Below are positions 4,344-63,723 of a DNA stretch of 64,000 nucleotides, piece after piece. The number at the start of each line of letters is the position of its first letter. The first letter of the stretch is position 1. The translations under genes were made by a program, and so were the position numbers. Under the pieces are notes generated by a model. The model ran no database searches and was not told where the DNA came from. It was given only the letters and a program-made list of their open reading frames with translations. The stretch comes from an uncultured Pseudomonadota bacterium (lineage in GTDB: Bacteria; Myxococcota_A; Polyangia; Fen-1088): NCBI GenBank assembly GCA_963774325.1, contig CAVZEF010000004.1, forward strand, positions 222,958 through 286,957, in the 5' to 3' direction.

Positions 4344-5567
4344 ATGACCGAGACCCCCGAGGCCCAGAGGAGAGCGCGGCTGATCCGCGAGCATCGCGAG
4401 TTGCTCGCGCGCAAGAACGAGCTCGACCCGACCTTCTCCAATGGCTTGTGCGATCGCTATCGCTTTCCGGTGCTGACCGCGGCGCACACGCCGATCTTCT
4501 GGCGTTACGACCTCGACCTCGACGACAACCCGTTCCTCCTCGAACGGCTGGGCGTCAACGCCGTCTTCAACGCCGGCGCGATCGAGCACGCGGGCAAGAT
4601 CTTGGTTGTCTGCCGCGTCGAGGGCGTCGACCGCAAGTCGTTCTTCGCCGTCGCTGAAAGCGCCAACGGTATCGACGCGTTCAGATTTTGGGACTACCCG
4701 ATCCTGCTGCCGGAGACCGACGACCCCGACATCAACGTCTACGACATGCGCCTCGTGCGGCACGAGGACGGCTACATCTATGGTCTGTTCTGCACCGAGC
4801 GAAAAGACCCGGCCGCGCCTTCCGGCGACACCTCGAGCGCGATCGCGCAGTGCGGGATCGCGCGCACGCGTGACCTCGTCACGTGGGAACGGCTCGCCGA
4901 CCTGCGAAGCCGCTCGGCGCAACAGCGCAACGTCGTGCTGCACCCGGAATTCATCGACGGAAAGTACGCGTTCTACACGCGCCCGCAGGACAGCTTCATC
5001 GAGGCCGGCAAAGGCGGCGGGATCGGCTGGGCGCTGTCCGACTCGATCGAGCGCGCCACGATCGGCGACGAGCTGATCATCGACGAGAAGCGGTACCACA
5101 CGATCAAGGAGGCGAAGAACGGCCAGGGGCCGGCACCGCTCAAGACCGCGAAAGGCTGGCTTCATATCGCACACGGCGTGCGCAACACGGCCGCGGGCCT
5201 GCGCTACGTCCTTTACGCGTTCCTCTCCGACCTCGCGCACCCCGAGCGCGTCACGCACAGCCCCGGCGGCTACCTGCTGGCGCCGATCGCAGACGAGCGC
5301 GTGGGCGACGTCTCGAACGTGCTCTTCTGCAACGGCGCGGTGGCGCGCGCGAACGGCGAGATCCTGATCTACTACGCCTCGTCGGACACGCGCCTTCACG
5401 TCGCGACGACGACGGTCGACAAGATGCTCGACTACGTCACCGGGACGCCGCCCGACGGGCTTCGCTCGCACGCGTCGGTCGCGCAGCGCCATGCGCTCAT
5501 CGACAAGAACCTGGCCCTCATCGCCCGCGCGACGGACAGCGATCCGCTCCGCCGCGCACGAGGCTGA
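4344..5567 (+). CDS. GH130 4-O-beta-D-mannosyl-D-glucose phosphorylase-like glycosidase
   Basis: [76 protein letters not shown]. Confidence 0.9.
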
Positions 5568-5582
5568 GCGACCGAGCCAGCG

Positions 5583-6062
5583 TTACATCGACAGTGCCAG
5601 GTCGAAGCTGCCGTTCGTGATGCTCTTCGTGCCGCCGCTCGGCAGATCGAACACCACCTCGAACGTCCCGACGATCGGCGCACCACCGACGGCGCCGATC
5701 TGCGTGAAGGCCACCGTGCAGCTCTCGGCCTTGATCGTCGGCCCCGCGGGATTGTCGTTTCTGTAGCTGAGGAGCAGCGGCTTGTCGGGCGTCGTCTGGC
5801 CGCAGACGAACGTTTGCGCCGTGAACGGCGTCGGCGCCGCGGCGTAGATCGTGACGGCCGCGCTGTCGTTGACGCCGAGCATGTCGACGGAGTCCCTCCC
5901 CCCCATCGACAACCACGTCGCCTGTCCCCCGGTCGCGGTCATCATCACGCCGTCGTCGAGCCAGGTGAAGTGGTGGGCGCCGCCCAGCACGTTGCCGCCG
6001 CTGACGCAGCCGCCGAGCAGCGCCGACGCGGCGACAACCCACGCTCCGATTCGTGCCGTCAT
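5583..6062 (-). CDS. Hypothetical lipoprotein
   Basis: ATG at 6062, signal ending LLGG-C, beta-rich C-terminus (GTFEVVF...ITNGSFDL). Confidence 0.65.
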   Translation of the reverse strand: MTARIGAWVVAASALLGGCVSGGNVLGGAHHFTWLDDGVMMTATGGQATWLSMGGRDSVDMLGVNDSAAVTIYAAAPTPFTAQTFVCGQTTPDKPLLLSYRNDNPAGPTIKAESCTVAFTQIGAVGGAPIVGTFEVVFDLPSGGTKSITNGSFDLALSM

Positions 6063-6088
6063 CCGCTCAGCATAACCCTGTCCGCGGG

Positions 6089-6508
6089 CTACAGGTACCG
6101 CTGCTCCGCCGACCGGTCCCAGGCGTTGGCTCGCCCGTCCGCGTAGTGGATGGGGGCGCTGGCAAGCTCGTCGTCGCTCGCGTCGTCGAGGCAGGCGACG
6201 TTCACCGCGTGAAAGCTGCCGCCCATCTGGGGGAGCACCCCGCCCTCGGAGAAGGCGCGGACGCCGCACTGGTTGCAGAAGAACAGGTGCAGGAAAGGCT
6301 CGGCCCTGGTGGGCGGCGTGTGCCGGTAGTCGGTGAGCGACTCCTGGCCGCGCAACAGCCGAAACTCACCCTCTCTCGCGAACGCCATCCAGAACCGAGC
6401 CTTGCGGCAGAATGAACAGTTGCACCGGGTCGTCCCGGCCGCGAGGTCGAGCTCGCACTCGAACGCGACCGCTCCACAGTGACAGCTCCCGTGATAGGTC
6501 TTTTTCAT
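6089..6508 (-). CDS. GFA/CENP-V family protein
   Basis: YHGSCHCGAV, CNCSFCRK, FCNQCGV. Confidence 0.9.
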   Translation of the reverse strand: MKKTYHGSCHCGAVAFECELDLAAGTTRCNCSFCRKARFWMAFAREGEFRLLRGQESLTDYRHTPPTRAEPFLHLFFCNQCGVRAFSEGGVLPQMGGSFHAVNVACLDDASDDELASAPIHYADGRANAWDRSAEQRYL

Positions 6509-47682: not shown

Positions 47683-50463
47683 TCAGTGAACCGTGACCGC
47701 GGCGTTCACTGATACGACCGCGCTCGCGCGACAGACCTTCATTGCGGCTTCGAGCTCAGATGCCCCGATGGTCGCCAGATGATTCGGGACCTCATCCAGC
47801 GCCGAGGGGGGCCATCCGGCCTTCCATGCCGTGAACAGGGCGCGAGCGACCTCGGCGTTGGTTCCGTACCGCGCCGCCGTCGCCAGCGCCAGTCGCCAGC
47901 GTACGCGCTCGATCGCGGCCTCGTCGGCGATCGATTGACCGCCTGCCGTGAGATACGACTCGATCAGCGCCGTCCCGTCGACCACGGATTGGTCCTCGAT
48001 GTCGAAGATGCCCTTCAGGATGTTGCTACCGCCCCAGAGCTGGGTGTGGCGAACGTTGTGCCCGTAACTTTTGCCCTCGTGAATCCGCAGGTGCTCGAAC
48101 AATCGTTCTTCCATGAGCTCGCCCAGGAAATCGCCGACGACGGCGTCGCGCGGCGTACGCGCCGGCGGCAACAGACAACCGAAGGTGATCGATGCCGCCC
48201 GCTGTTCGCGCATCTCGTTGAACTGGATGGGCAGCGGTCCGACCCTGGGCCGCGGCTCGGCAGCAGGCGGCGCCGTCAACCGCGCGCGCGGCGCCGGGCG
48301 ATCACTCCACGACCCGCGAAGCTTCCAATCGGCCAGCGCGAGCGCCTCGCCCGGATCGACGTCGCCGACGATGATCAGCGCGCCGTTCTCGGGGCGTTCG
48401 ACGCGATTGATCCACGCCTCGACCTCCGCCTGCGATCGCTCCATGACATCGACGATCGGGATCGCGAGGCCGTACGGGTTGTCGCCCCAGAGGGCCGCCG
48501 CGAACCGCCGCCGGGCCCAGCTTCCCCGCGTCTTCTCGTCGACCATCACCGTCGACGACCACCGTTCGAAGCGTTCGTCCGGCCATTTGACCTGTAACGC
48601 CTTGGTCTTGTCGGCGAGATAGGTGAGCGCAGCGCCCGTGAGCGACGCGTACGTCGACAGCTCGTCGCGAACGTCGTCGTCGTCGGTCCGCTCCTGCGAC
48701 AGGAGGTCGTACTCGAGGGGCCCCCAGATGTTCTCGTACTGACGTCCGAACCGCGCCGCGAGCCAGATGCCAGGCGGCGCGTCCCGCGTGGGTGTCGAAC
48801 GGAACCCCAAGGTCACCGAGACGAACGGCAACCCCGGCCGGCGCATGGCGATGACCGTGAGCCCGTTGGCAAGCGTGGCCGCACGCGCGGATCCCGCCGG
48901 CGGTGTCGCGGCCGCAGCACGGACCTCGTCTGGTGAATGAGTCGCTGGCGCTGGGCGGGGACCGGCGTCGGCCGGTCGCGCTGACGGGGTCTCGTTCCTC
49001 TCGGGCGGGGCGCTGCCGTTCGCCAACGACGCCGCGGCCATCTGGGCCGGCGCCCGCGGAGGCAAGGACCATTGAAACAGGATCGAACGAGCGGCTGCCG
49101 GCGTCAGGTATCGGTCGGCCAGATCGGAGAGCTGGCCGACCGAGACGCGATTGACGGCCTCGATCAGCGGCCCCAACCCGGCGTCCCCGCCGGGTTGCGC
49201 ATGCGCCAGCTCCGCGCGCGCGATGGTCCGCGCCTGCAGCGCCTGCAGGCCCAGGACTTCACTCAGCGTGACCCACTTCAGCGAGGCTTGTTGAACGGCG
49301 CCGTAAAGACGGAGGCTCGACAGGGCTCGTTTGGACACGATCTCCACGGCGCGCTCACGCACGGTGTCGGCGCGCCCCGCCTCGCGCAGGACGACGATAC
49401 ACTCGAGGACGCTCCCGCGATCCTCGATCGAGGTGTTCACGATGCTGAACAGGGCGTTGGGCAACTCCCCCTGCTCGATCGCCACGGCGAGGGCCAGACT
49501 GATGACCTCGCCCAGAATCTTGATGGGCACGGCGTCGACAGCTCGCGTTCCCGGAAGCCACCAGCCGATCCGGAGATAGGGTTTGTCGTTGATCGTGCGC
49601 GCCCGCGCCATCGCCGGGCTGCCGTCGAGCGGCGGGAGGGTCGCGACCATGGGTCGCCGTTCCGGCGCGCGCGGCGCGGCGCGATCCCCGGCCAGCGCCG
49701 CCGGCATCATCTCGAAGAGGTGCGCGTCCCAGGCCCTGGGGATCGCGCCGCTCAGAACCAGCGTCATCTTCTGCGGCTGGTAGTGATTGCGTACGAATGC
49801 TCGGACCGCGGCCGCCGGCCACGCCGGGGCCGCCGCATCCAGATCGCCCGACACGGCCGCCGCGTAAGGATGCGGCGCCGGGAAGATGCGCGCCCAGAGC
49901 AGGCGCTGCTCGGCGAGCGCCATGTCGTCGCGGACGTTGCGCTCCTCGCGCAGGACCACGCGCTGCTTGGCCAGCTCGGCGGCCAACGTGTCGTCGTCAG
50001 CGGCTCCGAGCGGGTCGGCCATGCGCGAGAGCTCGACGGCCACCAGGCGATCGAGCTGGCTGCGCGGACCGAACGTCTGGAACTGGGTTTTCTCCAGCGA
50101 GGTGAAACCGTTGACGTCAATCCCGCCCAGATCGCGCAGGCGTTCCCAAGGAGCATTGGACGCAGCATCGGGAGCAGAGTCGCGCGCGCCCCGGTGCAGC
50201 TCGAACGCCAGGTGCTCGACCACGTGCGGAAGCGATCCGTGGAAAGCCGGGTCGTCGACCGCGCCGGCGTCGACCACCCAGACCACGCCCACAAGGCCGG
50301 CGCTCGGGTCTTCGTCGATCACCACCCGCAAACCGCTCGGCAATGTGTACTGCCGCGCCGGAAACGTGCGCGCCACGTCGCGCGGGCTCATCGTCGCACA
50401 CGGCGTCGAAAGAACGAGGAACGCACCCAAGGCCAGAAATGATCCGCGCCCTCCCACCATCAT
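47683..50463 (-). CDS. M16 (insulinase-like) zinc peptidase, tandem-domain
   Basis: TLPSGLRV, HVVEH inverted zinc motif, VNGFTS, second unit TLANGLTV; N-terminal lipobox-like STP-C. Confidence 0.85.
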   Translation of the reverse strand: MMVGGRGSFLALGAFLVLSTPCATMSPRDVARTFPARQYTLPSGLRVVIDEDPSAGLVGVVWVVDAGAVDDPAFHGSLPHVVEHLAFELHRGARDSAPDAASNAPWERLRDLGGIDVNGFTSLEKTQFQTFGPRSQLDRLVAVELSRMADPLGAADDDTLAAELAKQRVVLREERNVRDDMALAEQRLLWARIFPAPHPYAAAVSGDLDAAAPAWPAAAVRAFVRNHYQPQKMTLVLSGAIPRAWDAHLFEMMPAALAGDRAAPRAPERRPMVATLPPLDGSPAMARARTINDKPYLRIGWWLPGTRAVDAVPIKILGEVISLALAVAIEQGELPNALFSIVNTSIEDRGSVLECIVVLREAGRADTVRERAVEIVSKRALSSLRLYGAVQQASLKWVTLSEVLGLQALQARTIARAELAHAQPGGDAGLGPLIEAVNRVSVGQLSDLADRYLTPAAARSILFQWSLPPRAPAQMAAASLANGSAPPERNETPSARPADAGPRPAPATHSPDEVRAAAATPPAGSARAATLANGLTVIAMRRPGLPFVSVTLGFRSTPTRDAPPGIWLAARFGRQYENIWGPLEYDLLSQERTDDDDVRDELSTYASLTGAALTYLADKTKALQVKWPDERFERWSSTVMVDEKTRGSWARRRFAAALWGDNPYGLAIPIVDVMERSQAEVEAWINRVERPENGALIIVGDVDPGEALALADWKLRGSWSDRPAPRARLTAPPAAEPRPRVGPLPIQFNEMREQRAASITFGCLLPPARTPRDAVVGDFLGELMEERLFEHLRIHEGKSYGHNVRHTQLWGGSNILKGIFDIEDQSVVDGTALIESYLTAGGQSIADEAAIERVRWRLALATAARYGTNAEVARALFTAWKAGWPPSALDEVPNHLATIGASELEAAMKVCRASAVVSVNAAVTVH

Positions 50464-50566
50464 CGACCCGCGCACACGCCGACTGTCGCTGGACGAGCAC
50501 CGGCCGTCAAGCCACACGGTCGCAACGCGGATGACTCGCGACGATTGGAAGCGCCCGGCCGCGGGG

Positions 50567-52191: not shown

Positions 52192-53580
52192 TCAAAACAA
52201 GGGTGGGCTCGCCAGCGTCGCGAGCTCGAGCGCCTGCTGCGCGAACCAATCGCCCGCCGCGGGATCGACGATCCCACCCCACTCGGGATCGGTGGTCGAT
52301 CCGGAGACGCCGCGATTGCACGAACCGTCCGACTCGCCGGGAATCTTGATCCAGAGCTCGGCGTCGGCGAGCGGGATGCCGGTCGCCGCCGTCGGCCGCG
52401 GCCCCACGCCCCGACCGGGCGGGTTGCACCAGTTCTGCGCGTCCGGGTAGATCACCGCCGGCGTCCAGGGCCCCTGGCCGTTGCGGCTGGTGTCGATCAC
52501 GAAGTGCGTCGTCGCCGTCGCGCCGCCCATGAGTGCTGCCAATCCCGCGGTCACGCCCGCTGCAAAGTCGGGCGTGTAATTCACGGTGCTGTAGTTGGTG
52601 GCCGGGTCGTATTGGCTCGGGCAATAGTCGAAGTGACCGGCCGCCCAGGGCGCGCCCGCTGTCGCTGCGGTGATGCAGTCCGAGACCCACGTCCCGAACT
52701 GAGCATTTTGATCGGTCGGCTGATAGTTGGACACGTTGAGGAAGAATCCCTGGGCGCGCTGAACACCCGCGGTCACCAGCCGAAACGCCGCATCACCGGG
52801 GCTCAGCCAGGCGCTGTGCGTACCGTCGAGATAGACAGCCGTGCGCGGCGCCTTGGCCCCGATGCTGTCGACGGCGTAGTTGAGCTGCGCATAGCGCTCG
52901 CTCGGGCTGGCGCCCGGCGCGGCGACGACGTTGCCTTGCGCGTCGGTGATCGTCGGCTGGCACGAATCCGCCGCGCCGAAGATGGTCTTGTTGTACGGGA
53001 TGATGCCCAGGCTGTCCGGCTCGAGGATCACCACGGCTTTCCCGTCTCCGATGCCGCGCGCAAAGCCGTCGATCCAGGCCTCATACGCGACCGTGTCGAC
53101 GGCGCCGCCCGCCGAGAAGCCCGCGCAGTCACGAAACGGGACGTTGTACGCGACCAGCACCGGCACCCGTCGTTCCTGGGACGCCGCCCGCATGGTGTTG
53201 CGCACCCCCCGCTCGACCTCGACGGGTGAGCCCGAGGTGAACCACACCGCTTGTGGTATCGCCTCCATCGTTGCCAGACGGCGCGCATCCGCGAGGCGCC
53301 GTGCGCGAAGCAGCTCGACGAGCTGCGTCTCCGCGCCGGCGTCCGGCGGGCGCACGAAGAAGCGCGTGTCGGGCGCCAGACCGCGCGGGTCGCCGCACGA
53401 GGACTGCGATGTCGATTGCCCGTCCGTCGAGGTGAGCGCGGCGGTGCGCTGCCCCTGCGTTTCGATCGCCGTCGGGTCACCGCCGCAGGCGCCGATCCCG
53501 CATGCGACCAGCGCCGACAACGCCGTGGGAAAACGCCCTGCTACCTTTGTCCTCGCCCGACTCTCGTTGTTCATGTCCAT
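52192..53580 (-). CDS. GH6 cellulase lipoprotein (catalytic residues intact)
   Basis: GAGGAG RBS, GIGA-C lipobox, VAYNVPFRDC, ILEPDSL, YLDGTHS, IDTSRNG, WCNPPGRG, WIKIPGESDGSC. Confidence 0.92.
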   Translation of the reverse strand: MDMNNESRARTKVAGRFPTALSALVACGIGACGGDPTAIETQGQRTAALTSTDGQSTSQSSCGDPRGLAPDTRFFVRPPDAGAETQLVELLRARRLADARRLATMEAIPQAVWFTSGSPVEVERGVRNTMRAASQERRVPVLVAYNVPFRDCAGFSAGGAVDTVAYEAWIDGFARGIGDGKAVVILEPDSLGIIPYNKTIFGAADSCQPTITDAQGNVVAAPGASPSERYAQLNYAVDSIGAKAPRTAVYLDGTHSAWLSPGDAAFRLVTAGVQRAQGFFLNVSNYQPTDQNAQFGTWVSDCITAATAGAPWAAGHFDYCPSQYDPATNYSTVNYTPDFAAGVTAGLAALMGGATATTHFVIDTSRNGQGPWTPAVIYPDAQNWCNPPGRGVGPRPTAATGIPLADAELWIKIPGESDGSCNRGVSGSTTDPEWGGIVDPAAGDWFAQQALELATLASPPLF

Positions 53581-53633: not shown

Positions 53634-53649
53634 AGCAACGAACGGACCA
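53634..53649 (-). promoter_or_regulatory. Putative sigma54 -24/-12 promoter of the GH6 gene
   Basis: Minus strand TGGTCCGTTCGTTGCT (GG-N10-GC, TTGCT), about 54 nt upstream of the ATG. Confidence 0.65.
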
Positions 53650-53711: not shown

Positions 53712-53739
53712 GACGTCTCGGACGTCCGCCGCGGACGTC
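53712..53739. promoter_or_regulatory. Three GACGTC palindromes, candidate enhancer for the adjacent activator
   Basis: GACGTC at 53712, 53721 and 53734, 63-90 bp upstream of the -24 element. Confidence 0.5.
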
Positions 53740-53764
53740 CACTCGGTCGCCGCGTGCCGGACCG

Positions 53765-56287
53765 CTACTTCTTCACGAGGGATGTCGGCGCGCTCGCGTC
53801 GATATCGAGAGGCGGGTTTGCGTTGCGGGCCAGCTCCAGGGCTTGATCCGGGAACCATTCGCCGATCGGTTCGCCGCTGCTCGGGAGGACACGCCCCCAG
53901 AGCGGATCGAACTGGTTCCGCGAGTCGCCCGCGATACCCCACGGGTTGTAGCGGCTGTAGTCCCAGGCCCGTGCCCCGCCGGCGATGTCACAGGATGCGT
54001 TGCAGATCCCAGGCATCTCTGCCCAGAGGTAGGCGTCGACCAGCGGCACGCCCGTGCTGGGCGTGGGAGGAAGGCCAACCCCGCGGCCGGGCGGCATGCA
54101 CCAGGCCCCGTAGTGCAGCACCTCGATGACCGGCGGCGGCTGATTGTACGGCGCGTGCCCGTAAACGCTGACGTCGAGCGGGCCGCGCCCATTGCGGTTC
54201 GTGTTGATGACGAAGTGGGTGAGCGCGTCGGTCGACGGCGGGTGAGCGGCCCGATCCACGTGCTCGACGTACCAGGCCTCCACCTTGGCCCAATCGGCTT
54301 CTTCGATCGGGGCGCTCGGTTCGGGTTCGCGCTCGTAGTGGGGCTGTCTGGGGCAATCTGCATAGCGGTTCGCCCCGGCGGGGGCCGAGGGCGCCGTGCG
54401 CACGTAGTAGATGCACTTCGCGATCGCGGTGCCGTACTGGATCGAGCGCCGCGTGGCCTGGAAGTTGCCGACGTTCAGGAAAAATCCCGCGGTTCGGCCC
54501 ACGCCGGCGCGCACCAGCCGATAGGCCGCGTCGCCGATCGGCAGCCAATCACTGTGTGTCCCGTCGAGATAAACTTCCGCGTTCGGGGCCTTGGCGGCGA
54601 GGACGTCGACGGCGTAGTTGAGCTGCAGGTAGCGATCCTCCGGCGTCGCGCCGGGAGAAGGGACTCGCCTGCCATCGGGACGCGCCTGCATCGGTTTGCA
54701 CTCGTCCTCCCCTCCGTTCAACCACCTCCCGTGGGGCATGAGACCGAGCCCGTTCGGTTCGAGCAGGACGATGACCGGCTCGTTACCGATTCCAGCGACG
54801 AACCCATCGATCCAGGCTTTGTAGGCCGCGGTATCGACCGCCCCCATGATCTCGTATCCGGCGCAGTTGCGAAATGGGCGCTGGGACGCCACCAGGACCG
54901 GCATCCGCCCTCTGCGTTCCGCTCGGGTGATGACCTCGCCGACCTGCGCGCGCACCTGCTCGGGCGAGCCGCTCACGAACCAGATCCCCGCCGGCGTGGC
55001 AACCATCGCGCTCAGCAGCGCGGCGTCGCGTGCGTCGTTGGCTTTCCGGAGGCTCGCGATCTGCGCGACCGCGCCCGGCGGCGGATCGGAGCTCAGGAAC
55101 CGCGTGTTCGGATCGAGCCGGTGGATCCGGCGCGCGGGCTGCCGCGCGACCGGGGGAGCGGCGGGGGCCGCGGCCTTCCGCACGGCCACGACCGCCACGG
55201 CCAACACCGCGACGAGCAATCCGGCGCCGAGCAACGCGCGGGAACGAAGGCGCCCGCTCGGCGCACGGGGCGTCGATGCGCGATTCTCAGCAGCCGGGCC
55301 GATGCGCATCGAACCGCTCGCCGATGCCGCGGCCTCGTGGTCATCACCCTCTGCTACCAACGTGGAGATCCTGTCGAAGCGGGCTCGTCCGGAATCCTCG
55401 GGCGGCGGCGGCCAGACCTCGCGGCGCGCGAACGGCGCCAGCGCGCGGCCCAGGGCCTCCGCCGATGAAGGTCGCAGCGCGAGATCCGAAGCCAGTACGC
55501 AGTCGACGATCTCTGCGAGGCCCGCGGGCAGGTCCGGCCGCACCGACGCGATCGGAACGGCTGCATGCGTGGCGATGTGATGCAGGATCGCGTTCTGCGA
55601 CCCGCCCGGGTGCGGCCGTTGCTGCGACACCAGCTCGTAGAAGATCGCGCCCAGCGCGTAGATGTCCGCCCGCGCATCGACCGTCTTTTCGCCGCGCGCC
55701 TGCTCCGGCGACATGTATACGACCGTGCCGATGAGCGACCCGGTGCGCGTTGCCGCGCTCGCTTCTTCCAGCGCTTGCAGCTTCGCCACGCCGAAGTCGA
55801 GGACCTTGACCAGATCGGTGCCGTCGTCGCGCCGGCTCACGAACAGGTTCTGCGGCTTGAGATCGCGGTGGACGATGTCGGCGGCGTGAGCCGCCGCGAC
55901 CCCGCGACAAGCCTGCAGGATGAGATCGGCCGCGCGTGTGACCGGCAGGCGGCCCTCGCGCTCCAGCAACGCCGCCAGGCTCTCACCGACCAGGTACTCC
56001 ATCACGATGTAAGGTGTGCCGTCGTCGGCGATGCCGAAGTCGACCGCCGCCGCGACGTTCTCGTTCTCGAGCGCGCCCGCTGCTTCGGCCTCGCGCTGAA
56101 ACCGCGCGAGGATGTCGCGACGTTCGGCGAGCTCCTGGCGCAGCAGCTTGATCGCGAAGCGCCGGTGCACGACCGTGTGCAGCGCTTCGTACACGAGGCC
56201 CATTCCGCCGCTGGCGAGCAGCCGGACGATGCGGTACTTCCCGCCGATGATTGCGCCGATCCGGCTCGTCTCCGCCAGGGCCTTCAT
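53765..56287 (-). CDS. Hanks-type Ser/Thr kinase - TM - degenerate GH6 domain fusion
   Basis: Kinase LASGGMG, AIK, HRDLKPQN, DFG, MSPEQ, DIYALG; TM LLGAGLLVAVLAVAVVAV; GH6 fold with PFRNC, EPNGL and PGICNASC. Confidence 0.92.
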   Translation of the reverse strand: MKALAETSRIGAIIGGKYRIVRLLASGGMGLVYEALHTVVHRRFAIKLLRQELAERRDILARFQREAEAAGALENENVAAAVDFGIADDGTPYIVMEYLVGESLAALLEREGRLPVTRAADLILQACRGVAAAHAADIVHRDLKPQNLFVSRRDDGTDLVKVLDFGVAKLQALEEASAATRTGSLIGTVVYMSPEQARGEKTVDARADIYALGAIFYELVSQQRPHPGGSQNAILHHIATHAAVPIASVRPDLPAGLAEIVDCVLASDLALRPSSAEALGRALAPFARREVWPPPPEDSGRARFDRISTLVAEGDDHEAAASASGSMRIGPAAENRASTPRAPSGRLRSRALLGAGLLVAVLAVAVVAVRKAAAPAAPPVARQPARRIHRLDPNTRFLSSDPPPGAVAQIASLRKANDARDAALLSAMVATPAGIWFVSGSPEQVRAQVGEVITRAERRGRMPVLVASQRPFRNCAGYEIMGAVDTAAYKAWIDGFVAGIGNEPVIVLLEPNGLGLMPHGRWLNGGEDECKPMQARPDGRRVPSPGATPEDRYLQLNYAVDVLAAKAPNAEVYLDGTHSDWLPIGDAAYRLVRAGVGRTAGFFLNVGNFQATRRSIQYGTAIAKCIYYVRTAPSAPAGANRYADCPRQPHYEREPEPSAPIEEADWAKVEAWYVEHVDRAAHPPSTDALTHFVINTNRNGRGPLDVSVYGHAPYNQPPPVIEVLHYGAWCMPPGRGVGLPPTPSTGVPLVDAYLWAEMPGICNASCDIAGGARAWDYSRYNPWGIAGDSRNQFDPLWGRVLPSSGEPIGEWFPDQALELARNANPPLDIDASAPTSLVKK

Positions 56288-57657
56288 CGGCCCTTGTCCC
56301 CGTCGCTGCGCAGGCTGTCGAGGTCGACGCCCTGCCCCTCCATGAGGCGATAGGCGCGCTGCCGGCTGATGCCGAGAACCGCCGCCGCGCGCGCGACGTT
56401 TCCGCCCGCGGCCCGCAGGGCCGAGATCAGCACGGGCAGCTGCATCGGTTCGGTTGCAGCGGAAACCGGCGGTGACCTCTCCGGCGTCTGGGCGCTGGCC
56501 TGCACAGGCGCAGCGGCCACGCTGGATCTTTCGGTCATGCGTTCGGGCAAATGCTGGGCCGTGAGAGTGACGCCCGATCCGTGCACCGCCATGAGCCGCC
56601 GCGCGAGCAACGCGAGCTCGCGCACGTTGAAGGGCCAGTCGTAGATGCACAGCCGCTCAGCGAGATCACTCTCGAAGGCGGGCACCCGATCGGGAGCGGC
56701 CGCCTCCAGCAAGCGCGCGAACAGCGGCAGGATGTCCTCCCGCCTTTGCCGCAGCGGCGGCAGGCTGACCGTGAGCCCGTCGAGCCGCGCGAACAAGTCG
56801 CTGCGGAAGCGTCCGGCGCGAACGGCGTCCATCAACGATTGCTGGCCGGCGACCACGACGCGAACATCGATCGGCACGGGCCGCGCCTCGCCGAGCGGTT
56901 GCACCTCGTGCTCCTCGAGCACGCGCAGCAGCTTGGCCTGCAACGGCATTGGCAGGTCGGAGACCTCGTCGAGCAGCAACGTTCCCCGGTCGGCGCTGCG
57001 GAAGAAGCCCGGGCTCGCCCGATCGGCGCCCGTGAAAGCGCCGCGGCGATAGCCAAACAGCTCCGCCTCCGCGAGGGCTTCGGGGAGCGCCGCGCAATTG
57101 ACGGCGATGAACGAGCCCTGGCGTCCGCTCCAGCGATGGAGGGCGTCGGCGACGCGCTCCTTCCCGGTACCGGTCTCACCCTCGATGACCACCGGCAGAT
57201 CGGTGACCGCCACGCGTCGCAGGGGCGCGAGCGCACCGATGAGCGCTTCGCCGCCCCAGAAGCCAGGCACGATCTCGACCACGTCGCCGGGAGCGGCGGT
57301 GACCACGCCGATCCAGCCGCCGAGCCGCAGCACGTCCTGCGGCGCGAGGGGCGCAAGCGGGATCTGGCGACCATTGACCCGGACGCCGTTCCGGCTGCCG
57401 AGGTCCACGATGGTCGTCACCGCTCCGGCACCCGGGCGCAGAACCGCATGCCGTCGCGAAACATCGTGTCCTCCCAGCTGAACGGCGCAGCCGGGATCTC
57501 TTCCCAGCGTGGTCTCGCCGTCGCGGTCCGATTTCAGCGCGACCGCCGGGACGCCGCTGTGCGGGTACCGCCAGGCGATCGAGAGCGCGTGCGTGGCTGC
57601 CGCCGTGGGCCCCGAGACCGCCTGGGTGATCGTCGTCGTGCCGCCCCCGTCGCTCAT
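56284..57657 (-). CDS. FHA-domain sigma54 enhancer-binding protein
   Basis: FHA (LGRD, VSRRH, GSRNG), GETGTGKE, GAFTGA, LLDEV, WPFNVREL, Fis-type HTH; stop overlaps the kinase ATG (ATGA). Confidence 0.93.
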   Translation of the reverse strand: MSDGGGTTTITQAVSGPTAAATHALSIAWRYPHSGVPAVALKSDRDGETTLGRDPGCAVQLGGHDVSRRHAVLRPGAGAVTTIVDLGSRNGVRVNGRQIPLAPLAPQDVLRLGGWIGVVTAAPGDVVEIVPGFWGGEALIGALAPLRRVAVTDLPVVIEGETGTGKERVADALHRWSGRQGSFIAVNCAALPEALAEAELFGYRRGAFTGADRASPGFFRSADRGTLLLDEVSDLPMPLQAKLLRVLEEHEVQPLGEARPVPIDVRVVVAGQQSLMDAVRAGRFRSDLFARLDGLTVSLPPLRQRREDILPLFARLLEAAAPDRVPAFESDLAERLCIYDWPFNVRELALLARRLMAVHGSGVTLTAQHLPERMTERSSVAAAPVQASAQTPERSPPVSAATEPMQLPVLISALRAAGGNVARAAAVLGISRQRAYRLMEGQGVDLDSLRSDGDKGR

Positions 57658-57755
57658 GCCCAACCGCCTTGATACCACGGTGCGGCCGCGCCGCTCAAAG
57701 GACGCCGGCGAGCCGATGCTATACTCGAGTCGTGTCCGCCCGCAGCACCGACCCC

Positions 57756-60762: not shown

Positions 60763-63723
60763 ATGCCCGAGCGTGCTGTTGACGCTCTCGACCCCGCACG
60801 AAAAAACCAGGAGGGGAATCCACCGCATCGCCTTCGCATCGCGGCGCTGCTCGATCACCTGAATGCGTTCAGCGGCGGCTATGAAGCGCAGCTGCGCGAT
60901 GCCCTGCACGCCAAGTGCAGCGAGGCGGGCCATCATCTGCTGCTGGTCTATGGCGGGCCGGTCGAGGCGCCGCAGCCGAGAGACGCGGCGGACAACGCCA
61001 TCTACGAGCTGCTTCGACCGGAGTCCGTCGACGGCATCATCGTCGTCTCGTCGTTGCTGTCGACCCACTGTGGCCCGAGCGGGGTCGCGAGGCTGGTCGA
61101 GCGATTCGGGCACGCGAAGGTGTGCAGCGTCGGCATCGAGCTGCCGGGGGTTCCGAGCCTGGTGCTCGAGAATCGGCCCGGCATGGAGGCGGTGGTCGAG
61201 CATCTGGTCCGCGATCATGGCCGTCGCAAGATTGCGTTTCTCGCGGGAACCCCCAACAACCCGGAAGCGAACGTTCGTTTCGACGCCTACCAGACGGTGC
61301 TGGCACGCCACGGCATCGCCTGCGATTCGACACTGATCGCGAGGGGCTACTTTCGCACCAACTCCGCCAAGGTTGCGATGCAGGAGCTTCTCGCGCGCGG
61401 CGTGGAATTCGACGCCGTCGTCGCGGCGAACGACGAGATGGCGACCGGGGCCATCGATGTCCTGCGCAAGCACGGCCTTCGCGTGCCCCAGGACATTCCG
61501 GTGACCGGCTTCGACGATCTCACGCTGGCGCGCCTGGGGAACCCACCGTTGACGACCGTCGCGCAACCGTTCGACCAGGTTGCGGACTGGGCCGTGCGTG
61601 CGATCGATGAGCTGATCACCGGTCGCGCGGTGCCGGCGTGCACCCGGGTGGCGGCGCGGTTCGTCCGGCGTGAGTCATGCGGGTGCGGATACGAAGCGTA
61701 CCGGGGCGACTCGCAGGCCTCTCACCCGATTCATTCCCCGGACACGGGGACCATGGTCGATCGCCTCGAGACTCTGCGGCCGGTCCTGGCGGGGCTTCTC
61801 GGCACCGGATTCTCGAGCGGCGCGGCGGCGGCGGAGCGCCTGCTCGATGGGCTTCGCGCCGAGATCGGCGGGCGGCGCGACGCGTTCCACCAGGCCATCG
61901 TCGGCCTCCTCGACAATGCCGGCACGGACAACGAGCGCCAGAGGATGCTCCACAGCGCGATCTGTTACCTCCACGACGAGCTGCGGGGCTGGTCGAGCGT
62001 CCAGGTCGAGAGCGTCCTCTTCAATGGACTGAACCTGGTCGCGCTCTCCAACACGACCAGCCAGATGGAGCATCGCTTGCTGCTCGACGAGAACTATCTG
62101 CGCCTGCTCGGAGTGGGCGAGCAAGCGTCGATCGCGTTCGATCTCGCGTCGCTGCGAGACGCGCTGGTGAAAGGGCTGCCCAACGCGGGCGTTCGCACCG
62201 CGTACCTGTCGTGCGTGGCCGGCTCGAACAGAAGCGTGCTGCGATCCGCTATGTGCCTCCGCGGCGGCGAGCTCCTGGACAACGAGAACCTCGAGTACGC
62301 GGCCAGCCGGCTGCTCCCGCCCGGCGCGCTGACCGACGACACCCGGGAGACTTTTCTGGTCCTCCCTCTCGCGTTCGAAGATCAGCTGCTCGGGATCATT
62401 GCGTTCAACTATTCCGATGGGATCAACGCCTATGCCGCGTTTCGCAATGAAATCGCGGCGGCGCTGAAGAGCATTCGCCTGCGAGAGGAGCTGGTGCAGA
62501 CCAGCATGCTGCACGAACGCAGCGTGCAGGAGCGATTGGCGGCAACCCGACGCATGGAGGCCCTGAGCGTGCTCGCGGGCGGTGTCGCGCACGATCTCAA
62601 CAACGCCCTCGGACCGCTGGTCGCCCTGCCGGACGTTATCCTCGCGCAGCTCCGCGAGATACCGATGGGCGGGGAAGCCGCGCGCGACCTGCGCGCCGAC
62701 ATCGAAGCCATCAAGGTGGCGTCGCTCCGTGCCGCCCAGACCATCAAAGACCTCCTCGCGCTCGGCCGCCAGGGGCGGATGGCCATGGAGAATCTCGACA
62801 TCAACCGCGTGATCAAATCGTGTTGCGCCAACAGTACCCTTCGCTTCCTCGAGGAGGGCAGGTCTCGAATCAACATGATCACGGACCTCAACCCCACGCC
62901 GCTCGTCGTCCGGGGATCGGAGTCGCAGCTGGCCAGGGCTGTCGACAACCTGATTCGCAACGCGGTCGAGGCCATCGGCGGCAACGGCGAGGTCGTCGTC
63001 AAGAGCGCCAAGGTCGACGTGCTCGAGCCACGCGTGGGCTATGAGACCGTTCCGGCCGGACGGTACGCGACGCTCTCTGTTTCGGATGACGGCTGCGGCA
63101 TCGAGCCGCACGAGCTCGGGCAGGTGTTCGAACCCTTCTTCACCAAGAAGCGCGCCGGTGAAACCTCGGGGTCCGGCCTGGGCCTTGCGATCGTTCACGG
63201 CGTCGTCAAGGAACACGAAGGTTTCATCGACATCTCCAGCACGCCGGAGGTGGGGACGACCATCACGCTGTACCTCCCGCACGTCGACGGCCTGGAGCGC
63301 CGCGAGCGCGTGCTGGCGGCGCCACGGGGAGACGCGCGCATCCTCATCGTCGACGACGAACCGATTCAGCTGCGGACCGGACGGCGCGTGCTCGTGCGCC
63401 TCGGATACCAGGTCGAGATCATGGAGAGCGGCCTGCGCGCTCACGAGCTCTTCAGCCGCGCGGCCAGCTCGGGTCAGAGCCCCTTCGACCTGGTCATCAT
63501 GGACATGGTGCTGGGCGAGGCGCTCGATGGCCTGCAGGTCATCGAACAGATCCAGCGTCTGTTCCCCGCGCAGAAGTTCATCGTCGTCAGCGGTCACGCG
63601 CCGACTGAACGTGTGGAGCTGGCGGTCAAGCGGGGCCTCACCTGGCTCGCCAAGCCGTACGACATGGAGAGCCTCGCCAAGGCGGTGCAAGGGGTCCTGC
63701 GAAGCGACGGCGAAGCCGAATAG
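60763..63723 (+). CDS. Hybrid sensor: LacI-type ligand-binding domain + histidine kinase + receiver
   Basis: RKIAFLAG, FDAVVAANDEMA, VPQDIPVTGFDD, PPLTTV; LAGGVAHDLNN, NLIRNA, DDGCG, FEPFFT, GLGL; ILIVDD, DLVIMD, KP; no evident TM; start uncertain. Confidence 0.9.
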   Translation: MPERAVDALDPARKNQEGNPPHRLRIAALLDHLNAFSGGYEAQLRDALHAKCSEAGHHLLLVYGGPVEAPQPRDAADNAIYELLRPESVDGIIVVSSLLSTHCGPSGVARLVERFGHAKVCSVGIELPGVPSLVLENRPGMEAVVEHLVRDHGRRKIAFLAGTPNNPEANVRFDAYQTVLARHGIACDSTLIARGYFRTNSAKVAMQELLARGVEFDAVVAANDEMATGAIDVLRKHGLRVPQDIPVTGFDDLTLARLGNPPLTTVAQPFDQVADWAVRAIDELITGRAVPACTRVAARFVRRESCGCGYEAYRGDSQASHPIHSPDTGTMVDRLETLRPVLAGLLGTGFSSGAAAAERLLDGLRAEIGGRRDAFHQAIVGLLDNAGTDNERQRMLHSAICYLHDELRGWSSVQVESVLFNGLNLVALSNTTSQMEHRLLLDENYLRLLGVGEQASIAFDLASLRDALVKGLPNAGVRTAYLSCVAGSNRSVLRSAMCLRGGELLDNENLEYAASRLLPPGALTDDTRETFLVLPLAFEDQLLGIIAFNYSDGINAYAAFRNEIAAALKSIRLREELVQTSMLHERSVQERLAATRRMEALSVLAGGVAHDLNNALGPLVALPDVILAQLREIPMGGEAARDLRADIEAIKVASLRAAQTIKDLLALGRQGRMAMENLDINRVIKSCCANSTLRFLEEGRSRINMITDLNPTPLVVRGSESQLARAVDNLIRNAVEAIGGNGEVVVKSAKVDVLEPRVGYETVPAGRYATLSVSDDGCGIEPHELGQVFEPFFTKKRAGETSGSGLGLAIVHGVVKEHEGFIDISSTPEVGTTITLYLPHVDGLERRERVLAAPRGDARILIVDDEPIQLRTGRRVLVRLGYQVEIMESGLRAHELFSRAASSGQSPFDLVIMDMVLGEALDGLQVIEQIQRLFPAQKFIVVSGHAPTERVELAVKRGLTWLAKPYDMESLAKAVQGVLRSDGEAE

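Follow-up and report, generated by a model that had tools for sequence, protein, structure and literature searches.

A receptor Ser/Thr kinase with a GH6-fold ectodomain lacking the catalytic residues, and its predicted link to an adjacent cellulase gene in uncultured Polyangia

We analysed a stretch of 64,000 nucleotides (hereafter the window; positions 222,958 to 286,957 of contig CAVZEF010000004.1, assembly GCA_963774325.1) from an uncultured bacterium of the Polyangia. A gene on its minus strand encodes an 840-aa protein that joins a Hanks-type Ser/Thr kinase to a domain of glycoside hydrolase family 6 (GH6), and this domain carries replacements at the positions of the catalytic residues. 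The gene lies between that of an enhancer-binding protein (EBP) of the FHA–sigma54 AAA+–HTH_8 type and a standalone GH6 gene with an intact active-site signature. We propose, with a probability of roughly 0.6, that this pseudo-cellulase receptor kinase senses cellulose fragments and controls the adjacent cellulase gene via the FHA-sigma54 activator. Soluble cello-oligosaccharides reaching the periplasm would occupy the dead GH6 cleft, and cleft occupancy would activate the kinase. A phosphothreonine on the juxtamembrane region of the kinase or on the activator would then be read by the FHA domain of the EBP, which would assemble on GGACGTCC boxes and open the sigma-54 promoter of the intact GH6 lipoprotein gene, so that the outcome would be a local positive circuit. 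A non-hydrolysing sensor would hold its ligand and not destroy it, which offers a reason why catalytic residues were lost repeatedly. More broadly, we see about even odds that a cellulase fold was captured once by a receptor kinase, lost catalysis repeatedly and belongs to a complete, undescribed pathway leading from a fragment to a cellulase promoter.

A kinase-fused GH6 domain without the catalytic residues

The fused gene and its parts are as follows.
53765..56287, minus strand: receptor Ser/Thr kinase with a GH6-fold ectodomain, 840 aa (Pkinase and Glyco_hydro_6 in one open reading frame)
55433..56236, minus strand: Hanks-type kinase domain, aa 18-285, predicted to be active (motifs read in the translation)
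55181..55237, minus strand: single predicted transmembrane helix, aa 351-369, ALLGAGLLVAVLAVAVVAV (Kyte-Doolittle)
53828..55045, minus strand: putative GH6-fold sensor domain without catalytic residues, aa ~415-820 (PF01341, AF2 model, Foldseek)
54866..54886, minus strand: SQRPFRN, with S468 (Y73 of T. fusca Cel6A, TfCel6A; Y169 of T. reesei Cel6A, TrCel6A) and N474 (D79/D175, the proposed base)
54752..54754, minus strand: N512, at the site of the catalytic acid (TfCel6A D117 / TrCel6A D221)
54203..54205, minus strand: N695 (AAC codon), replacing the invariant Asp of (V/I)DTSRNG
53996..54019, minus strand: E757-M-P-G-I761-C-N763-A764, against K-x-P-G-E-S-D-G in the enzymes (K259, E263, D265)

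Region 53790-55120, which a preliminary description of the window had singled out, lies inside a minus-strand open reading frame (ORF) at 53765..56650. Translation most likely starts at ATG 56287 and stops at 53765, since the closest homologue begins at the same Met, since this ATG overlaps the TGA of the upstream gene as ATGA, and since the genes called in related contigs overlap by the same 4 bp. A Pfam scan of the 840-aa protein returned Pkinase (PF00069, 138.9 bits) and Glyco_hydro_6 (PF01341, 122.5 bits) and no other domain, the RsgI domain being absent. In the kinase part, the translation contains FAIK (K47), HRDLKPQN (aa 140-147), LDFGVAK and SPEQ (aa 193), that is, the catalytic Lys, the HRD-loop Asp, the DFG and an APE-like motif. 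These motif claims cover the window's protein alone, our motif survey of the homologues being too strict for the HRD and glycine loops. The Kyte-Doolittle profile (19-residue windows) reaches its maximum of 2.85 at aa 351-369, the sole segment above 1.6, flanked by RLRSR and RK. As the kinase has to face the cytoplasm, the GH6 domain is predicted to lie in the periplasm.

The assignment of this domain to GH6 is supported by both profile and structure comparisons. First, the PF01341 match is far above the cut-off of 27 bits and covers profile positions 8-299 of 305. Second, an AlphaFold2 (AF2) model of the domain (pLDDT 81, pTM 0.86) retrieved with Foldseek the bacterial endoglucanases 1UP0, 6FAO and 2BOD as top matches (E ~1e-17, TM 0.76-0.80 on the target). 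The 45 best PDB matches of the model were all GH6 structures or GH6-engineered scaffolds, and the structure matches with significant E-values were GH6 only. The domain also contains an insertion of ~100 aa that is common to a Polyangia/Actinomycetota GH6 subfamily.

The preliminary description had reported that the three signature Asp of the domain are Asn, that a Tyr is lost and that the Trp-containing segments and YLDGTHS are retained; all of this, including the AAC codons, could be confirmed in the translation. Where the neighbouring active enzyme reads YNVPFRDC, EPDSL and PGESDGSC, the fused protein reads SQRPFRNC (aa 468-475), EPNGL (aa 510-514) and PGICNASC (aa 759-766). We numbered the residues by gapless phmmer blocks against TfCel6A chains 2BOE/1TML, an alignment that the same description had called for. 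Y73 of TfCel6A corresponds to S468 (TCC, 54884-54886), D79 to N474 (AAC, 54866-54868), S84 to E479, D117 to N512 (AAC, 54752-54754), K259 to E757, E263 to I761 and D265 to N763 (AAC, 53999-54001), and W231 and R237 correspond to W729 and R735. A fourth Asp-to-Asn change had been missed at first: FVIDTSRNG of the enzymes has become FVINTNRNG (N695, AAC 54203-54205). Each of these changes is a single GAC-to-AAC transition, the easiest possible replacement. Nevertheless, the loss of the Asp and Tyr residues goes beyond chance, because the Y73-, D79-, D117- and D265-type positions are invariant in the 25 closest standalone GH6 enzymes, all of which are Y/D/D/D. The retained Trp are W436 (GIWF), W581 (YLDGTHSDW), W729 (WCMPPG) and W811 (GEWF), and the cleft Trp are invariant or nearly so among 40 sensors and enzymes.

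In TrCel6A, D221 acts as the acid and D175 as the proposed base, through a water wire; the D175A mutant keeps 2-3% activity (PMC6091422). The corresponding residues of TfCel6A and mgCel6A are D117, the acid, and D79, the candidate base (PMC5968413). The D401 backbone and S181 hold the nucleophilic water in position, and the -1 sugar is puckered by Y169 (PMC6091422; PMC5968413). Judged by the alignment, the window's protein lacks every residue to which a chemical role has been given in GH6. Because the acid (N512), the proposed base in RDC (N474), the D265-type Asp in PGExDG (N763), the ring-distorting Tyr (S468) and the water-positioning Ser (E479) are all replaced, the domain is predicted to be unable to hydrolyse, and the ectodomain is very probably not a hydrolase.

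The same substitutions would allow binding. The PDB entry 2BOF, which was among our structure matches, holds TfCel6A Y73S with uncleaved cellotetraose, so that a Ser at the Y73 position is compatible with substrate binding. The PDB also holds engineered enzymes with the same kinds of substitution, TfCel6A Y73S (2BOF/2BOG) and HiCel6A D405N (1OC5), as well as, according to the entry titles, TrCel6A D221A/D175A and PcCel6A D170N, substitutions that crystallographers have used to keep substrate uncleaved. Since these Y73S, D-to-N and D-to-A mutants trap ligands, the natural substitutions appear to be of the kind that stops catalysis and permits binding. The engineered proteins are laboratory single mutants, whereas the natural domain combines several changes and adds further changes in the pocket.

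Origin, selection and remodelling of the fused domain

A search with the GH6 part gave 510 matches; among the best 120, which we inspected, 91 were full-length kinase–GH6 fusions of the same architecture. Unbiased standalone relatives were added from an index-free search of 1.84 billion representatives, and two trees were rooted on more distant GH6, a quick one with 173 rows and a careful LG+C20 PMSF tree with 60 rows. The careful tree unites all kinase-fused GH6 domains in a single clade (UFBoot/SH-aLRT 100/99), in agreement with the quick tree. The nearest outgroups of this clade are standalone GH6 of Polyangia and Actinomycetota, the window's neighbour included. Thus, the kinase fusion appears to have arisen once, from standalone Polyangia GH6 enzymes. 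An earlier quick tree, made from a length-biased sample, had put standalone sequences inside the fused radiation; the unbiased representatives reversed this placement and we do not rely on that tree. The preliminary description had also suggested that the fused domain was duplicated from the adjacent GH6. A recent duplication is ruled out, as the identity between them is 46% and both trees place the neighbour among the standalone enzymes, outside the single fused clade.

We also considered a 722-aa frame on contig C3 of the same genome as a second kinase–GH6 paralogue and rejected it, since it is a frameshift-split standalone GH6 and not fused to a kinase. In this gene (C3:57393-58158; L012:3249-5393, minus strand) the GH6 frame is split in two at ~C3:57778, by a frameshift or an assembly error, and an intact GH6 of 395 aa lies 7 kb away.

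We then compared the signature residues of 102 kinase-fused GH6 domains. They include an acid-less subclade of 34 members (clade A, support 100/99), to which the window's gene belongs, and 68 other domains. In clade A the acid site is never Asp (N 28, S 5, E 1) and neither is the D265-equivalent (V 19, S 8, A 2, N 2, H 1, I 1, F 1), and the base Asp (D79-equivalent) is kept in 31/34 and the Tyr in 29/34. The S/N/N/N signature is found in the window's gene and its homologue P0005 only; the two are 79-86% identical and sit on a long stem (0.38 in the careful tree). The proposal of three parallel isosteric changes under selection is therefore not supported: only the change at the acid site is clade-wide, and Asn at the D79- and D265-equivalents is confined to this pair, as is, within clade A, Ser in place of the Tyr. 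The variety of residues at the D265-equivalent suggests a lost constraint on identity and not selection for Asn. The all-Asn pattern thus appears to be a recent, lineage-specific end state reached by single transitions, with no conserved signature behind it.

Outside clade A, D/D/D is kept in 64 of the 68 fused domains, which implies that the sensor fusion preceded the loss of Asp and does not need it. The Tyr is kept in only 24 of these 68, the 44 replacements being N 18, S 15, F 8, H 2 and Q 1. Because this Y73/Y169-type Tyr is kept in the 25 closest standalone enzymes, catalysis may already be impaired in many fused sensors that look intact. Counted on the tree, at least 10 changes of the Tyr, 4 of the acid Asp, 2 of the base Asp and 2 of the D265-equivalent must have occurred within the fused clade, against 0 at the same four sites among the 25 closest standalone enzymes. 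We limit the latter count to these 25 sequences because a few distant standalone signatures look non-canonical, perhaps through alignment errors. By these counts, the catalytic residues seem to have become dispensable specifically once the fold was tethered to a kinase. Natural variants would run from sensors that look active (Y/D/D/D) to ones that are fully dead (S/N/N/N).

Such losses could also be the neutral decay of an unneeded remnant of an enzyme fusion. To weigh this, we estimated dN/dS, as the preliminary description had advised, between the window's gene and P0005, the one suitably close pair (dS 0.4-0.6). The GH6 part (388 codons) gave 0.12-0.20, near the values of the kinase (0.07-0.16), the EBP (0.13-0.22) and a 189-codon fragment of the active neighbour (0.07-0.15); the linker and transmembrane segment gave 0.32-0.43. 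The estimates are restricted to the first 798 codons by a frameshift in the closest relative's contig (L001, GCA_009787525.1). There the C-terminus of the kinase–GH6 gene is frameshifted (4500-4736) and the neighbouring GH6 gene is fragmented (5080-6365), which probably reflects low assembly quality.

Decay would fit the seven different residues found at the D265-equivalent across clade A, the single transition behind each D-to-N change and the long branch to the window's gene and P0005. On the other hand, dN/dS over the 388 codons is as low as in the EBP and well under that of the linker, the frame is intact in more than 30 clade members at 57-66% identity, and the replacement residues are fixed. 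We therefore regard decay as extremely improbable, and the GH6 domain reads as a maintained fold under purifying selection. The preliminary description had opposed a binding-only sensor to decay; the maintained non-catalytic fold in this claim is supported by dN/dS, the Trp and the conserved gene module, and its selected all-Asn signature is not.

The pocket of clade A has also been rebuilt. We looked for alignment columns with a conservation of 90% or more among standalone enzymes that are changed in clade A, and most of them turned out to be fixed for a new residue. The S84-equivalent (position 479) is Gly in 32/34, with Glu in the window's gene and P0005. The Asp of IDTSRNG, present in 25/25 standalone and 67/68 other fused domains, is Asn (N695) in 33/34. 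WCN has become WCM (M731) in 29/34, A735 has become Arg in 32/34, the K259-equivalent (757) Asp or Glu in 33/34, the Gly after the D265-equivalent Ala (A764) in 34/34, S607 Gly in 34/34 and N520 Gly in 30/34; a further enzyme-conserved Asp is replaced by Leu or Val at 801. A pocket that seems to have been remodelled and then conserved argues for a maintained binding function.

Two of these positions raise the question whether the domain might still be catalytic through relocated carboxylates, E479 (Ser84-equivalent) and D/E757 (Lys259-equivalent). These are new acidic residues beside the old active centre, and D/E757 recurs across nearly all of clade A. E479, however, is restricted to the window's gene and P0005, the window's protein has none of the acid, proposed base, D265-equivalent, Tyr and Ser left, and we know of no GH6 precedent for such catalysis. 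This explanation is thus very improbable.

The conserved gene module and its candidate promoter

The genes on either side and the elements between the fused gene and the downstream GH6 gene are listed here.
56284..57678, minus strand: FHA–sigma54 AAA+–HTH_8 enhancer-binding protein (EBP, P0004; Pfam and motifs)
53712..53740, minus strand: candidate enhancer with GGACGTCC, GGACGTCC and GACGTC boxes, 63-90 bp upstream of the promoter
53634..53649, minus strand: candidate sigma-54-type promoter TGGTCC-N5-TTGCT (GG-N10-GC), 2 mismatches to the consensus
52192..53580, minus strand: standalone GH6 with intact Y/D/D/D, predicted output gene (PF01341, 217.7 bits)

The EBP starts likely at GTG 57678 or ATG 57657. 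Its Pfam matches are FHA (54 bits), Sigma54_activat (190.8 bits), AAA_lid_14 and HTH_8, and its translation contains GAFTGA, the Walker A motif GETGTGKE and the FHA residues GR, SxxH and NG. It thus has the FHA domain, the AAA+ domain with GAFTGA and the C-terminal HTH of an FHA-input sigma-54 activator. Its TGA stop overlaps the kinase ATG (ATGA), which points to translational coupling. The EBP gene lies directly upstream of the fused kinase, usually with the 4-bp overlap, in clade-A and D/D/D loci alike, and an EBP gene is adjacent in 14/14 loci of GTDB species genomes that hold a complete fused gene (12 co-directional, 2 divergent).

The GH6 gene on the other side likely encodes a lipoprotein, given its N-terminus (MDMNNES...ALVAC|G), and a GAGGAG ribosome site is found 8 nt before its ATG at 53580. 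A standalone GH6 usually adjoins the fused kinase, belonging either to the neighbour's subfamily or to a shorter, cellobiohydrolase-like subfamily. At another locus (L025/L060; CAVZVU010000005.1, ~2.49-2.50 Mb) we observed the order GH6–kinase–EBP–GH6 with a kinase ORF of ~580 aa that has no GH6 domain; this may be an unfused or a secondarily split module.

The combination of boxes and a sigma-54-type promoter before the target GH6 is conserved in 8 loci; it is seen in L001, L003/L030, L004, L017, L028, L029 and L032. At the same place as in the window, CGGACGTCCGC boxes are found in L001, L003 and L004, and paired GACGTC boxes in L017, L028, L029 and L032; the arrangement is kept also where the target belongs to the other GH6 subfamily. 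In the whole 8.57-Mb genome, one GGACGTCC pair within 40 bp was found, upstream of the window's GH6. A scan of that genome for a larger regulon, based on paired boxes plus a sigma-54 promoter, returned this site alone. An RpoN box is encoded on contig C2 of the same genome. The promoter match gains weight because it is conserved in 8 loci, because together with the boxes it is unique in the genome, and because an RpoN box is present; we infer that the EBP would act on this candidate promoter.

A similar site was seen at L013:9080-9176, where paired GACGTC boxes and TGGTCC-N5-TTGCT lie 3 kb downstream of a clade-A kinase–GH6 gene, before an ECF sigma-70 (Sigma70_r2) gene. This may be an alternative wiring or chance.

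Several observations weigh against a cellulose-fragment sensor that drives the neighbouring gene. First, the hexamers of the promoter deviate (TGGTCC) and are at chance level on their own, with 65 matches against 63 expected in the window, and some fused loci have no box pair matching our search pattern. Second, no GH6 was found within 5 kb in L013, L016, L018, L027 and L005. Third, given how widely D/D/D is kept outside clade A, signalling by the ancestral fused form may have been tied to catalysis, or this form may have served another function. Fourth, the AF2 model is of low confidence (pLDDT 56-79) where loops close over the active site, and the pocket geometry is taken from the sequence alignment. 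Because this pocket is heavily remodelled (four Asp lost, the K259-equivalent turned into D/E, Asn into Met), the ligand is perhaps no plain cellodextrin. Finally, all carriers of fused genes are uncultured metagenome-assembled genomes (MAGs) of Polyangia/Myxococcota.

Some of these points would suit a GH6-fold sensor for another ligand, such as a different beta-glycan, an oligosaccharide that is modified or charged, or a partner protein, e.g. the secreted GH6; the pocket changes would in that case mirror a new specificity. Many enzyme-invariant cleft residues have been swapped in clade A for newly conserved ones, which speaks for a new constraint over simple inactivation, and some loci have a target of another GH6 type, or none within 5 kb. 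Yet the domain still has the Trp platform and YLDGTHS, the conserved gene beside the kinase is invariably a GH6, and it is before this GH6 that the promoter elements lie. We consider another ligand rather unlikely, and cellulose fragments remain our preferred candidate.

The ectodomain could also be mainly an anchor that keeps the kinase close to cellulose or to a glycan of the periplasm, with other inputs setting the kinase and the link to GH6 being co-expression only. Ectodomains of bacterial Ser/Thr kinases are often of unknown role, and the weakness of the sigma-54 match on its own would suit this explanation. However, in both clades the EBP gene is translationally coupled to the kinase gene, and the box–promoter arrangement occurs once in the genome, before the GH6. 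Moreover, from its topology, an inner-membrane protein should not be able to reach insoluble cellulose beyond the outer membrane. An anchor is thus quite improbable.

Comparison with known systems and further observations

The closest parallel in design is found in the RsgI anti-sigma-I factors of Clostridium thermocellum, where CBM3, PA14, GH10 or GH5 modules serve as polysaccharide sensors (PMC6852018). In both cases a membrane regulator carries a carbohydrate-active module outside the cytoplasmic membrane and switches on, or here would switch on, glycoside hydrolase genes. The transduction differs: RsgI works by proteolysis of the anti-sigma factor and release of sigma-I, whereas we propose Ser/Thr phosphorylation read by an FHA-sigma54 activator. 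In addition, RsgI is Gram-positive and surface-exposed, while the kinase–GH6 domain has a GH6 fold and would be periplasmic in a diderm. The kinase–GH6 system is not a member of the RsgI family, because the RsgI domain is absent and the neighbour is an EBP rather than a sigma-I factor.

In Mycobacterium tuberculosis, PknH is a transmembrane Hanks kinase with an extracellular sensor, encoded beside EmbR, a regulator whose FHA domain reads kinase-made phosphothreonine. The two systems share the pairing of a receptor Ser/Thr kinase gene with the gene of an FHA-domain transcription regulator. Unlike the EBP, which is a sigma-54 AAA+ protein, EmbR belongs to the SARP-type activators; the ectodomain of PknH does not derive from an enzyme, and the outputs are arabinosyltransferases.

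For Myxococcus xanthus, a 2005 PNAS study by Jelsbak, Givskov and Kaiser is said to have proposed that FHA-EBPs are under Ser/Thr rather than histidine kinases. These proteins reportedly have the same FHA–sigma54 AAA+–HTH architecture and come from the same phylum, with a developmental role and no assigned cognate kinase or ligand. Here, in contrast, the kinase is translationally coupled, and a candidate input domain and output promoter can be identified.

Compared with active GH6 enzymes (T. fusca Cel6A, M. tuberculosis Cel6, mgCel6A), the domain shares the fold, the Pfam family and the cleft Trp. It differs from them in the replaced equivalents of the acid, base, D265-type Asp, Y73 and S84, in the ~100-aa insertion and in its transmembrane tether to a kinase. 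We found no description of a kinase–GH6 fusion family in the literature that we searched on such fusions, on pseudo-glycosidase sensors and on the myxobacterial kinome. If our proposal is correct, the protein would be a Hanks kinase that senses carbohydrates, a type not reported in that literature, and a myxobacterial FHA-EBP would have been assigned a cognate kinase, a ligand domain and a promoter.

To our knowledge, myxobacteria encode hundreds of Ser/Thr kinases and many FHA sigma-54 activators, almost none of which has a known ligand, partner or promoter. Here the candidate ligand domain, partner and promoter can be read from one locus that is conserved in dozens of uncultured Polyangia, and so the link from kinase to FHA-EBP is directly testable. 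The family may also offer a natural series of stages in the conversion of an enzyme into a receptor, within a cellulase fold that is well understood, and the dead ectodomain could become a non-hydrolysing cellodextrin binder or a biosensor part. Nearly all fused homologues (P0006-P0124) are named 'endoglucanase' or 'glycoside hydrolase family 6 protein' by JGI/NCBI, including the 34 acid-less ones. For the acid-less clade these endoglucanase labels are probably wrong, a systematic over-annotation that would inflate cellulase counts in soil metagenomes.

Two further genes of the window were noted. A 944-aa ORF at 47683-50517 (minus strand) has a Pfam match only to the Peptidase_M16 inactive domain. 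At 60763-63723 (plus strand), a 986-aa hybrid sensor combines a periplasmic domain like sugar-binding proteins (Peripla_BP_3/1/4) with HATPase_c and a receiver; it is a second, unrelated sensor of the carbohydrate type, 4 kb from the kinase–GH6 module.

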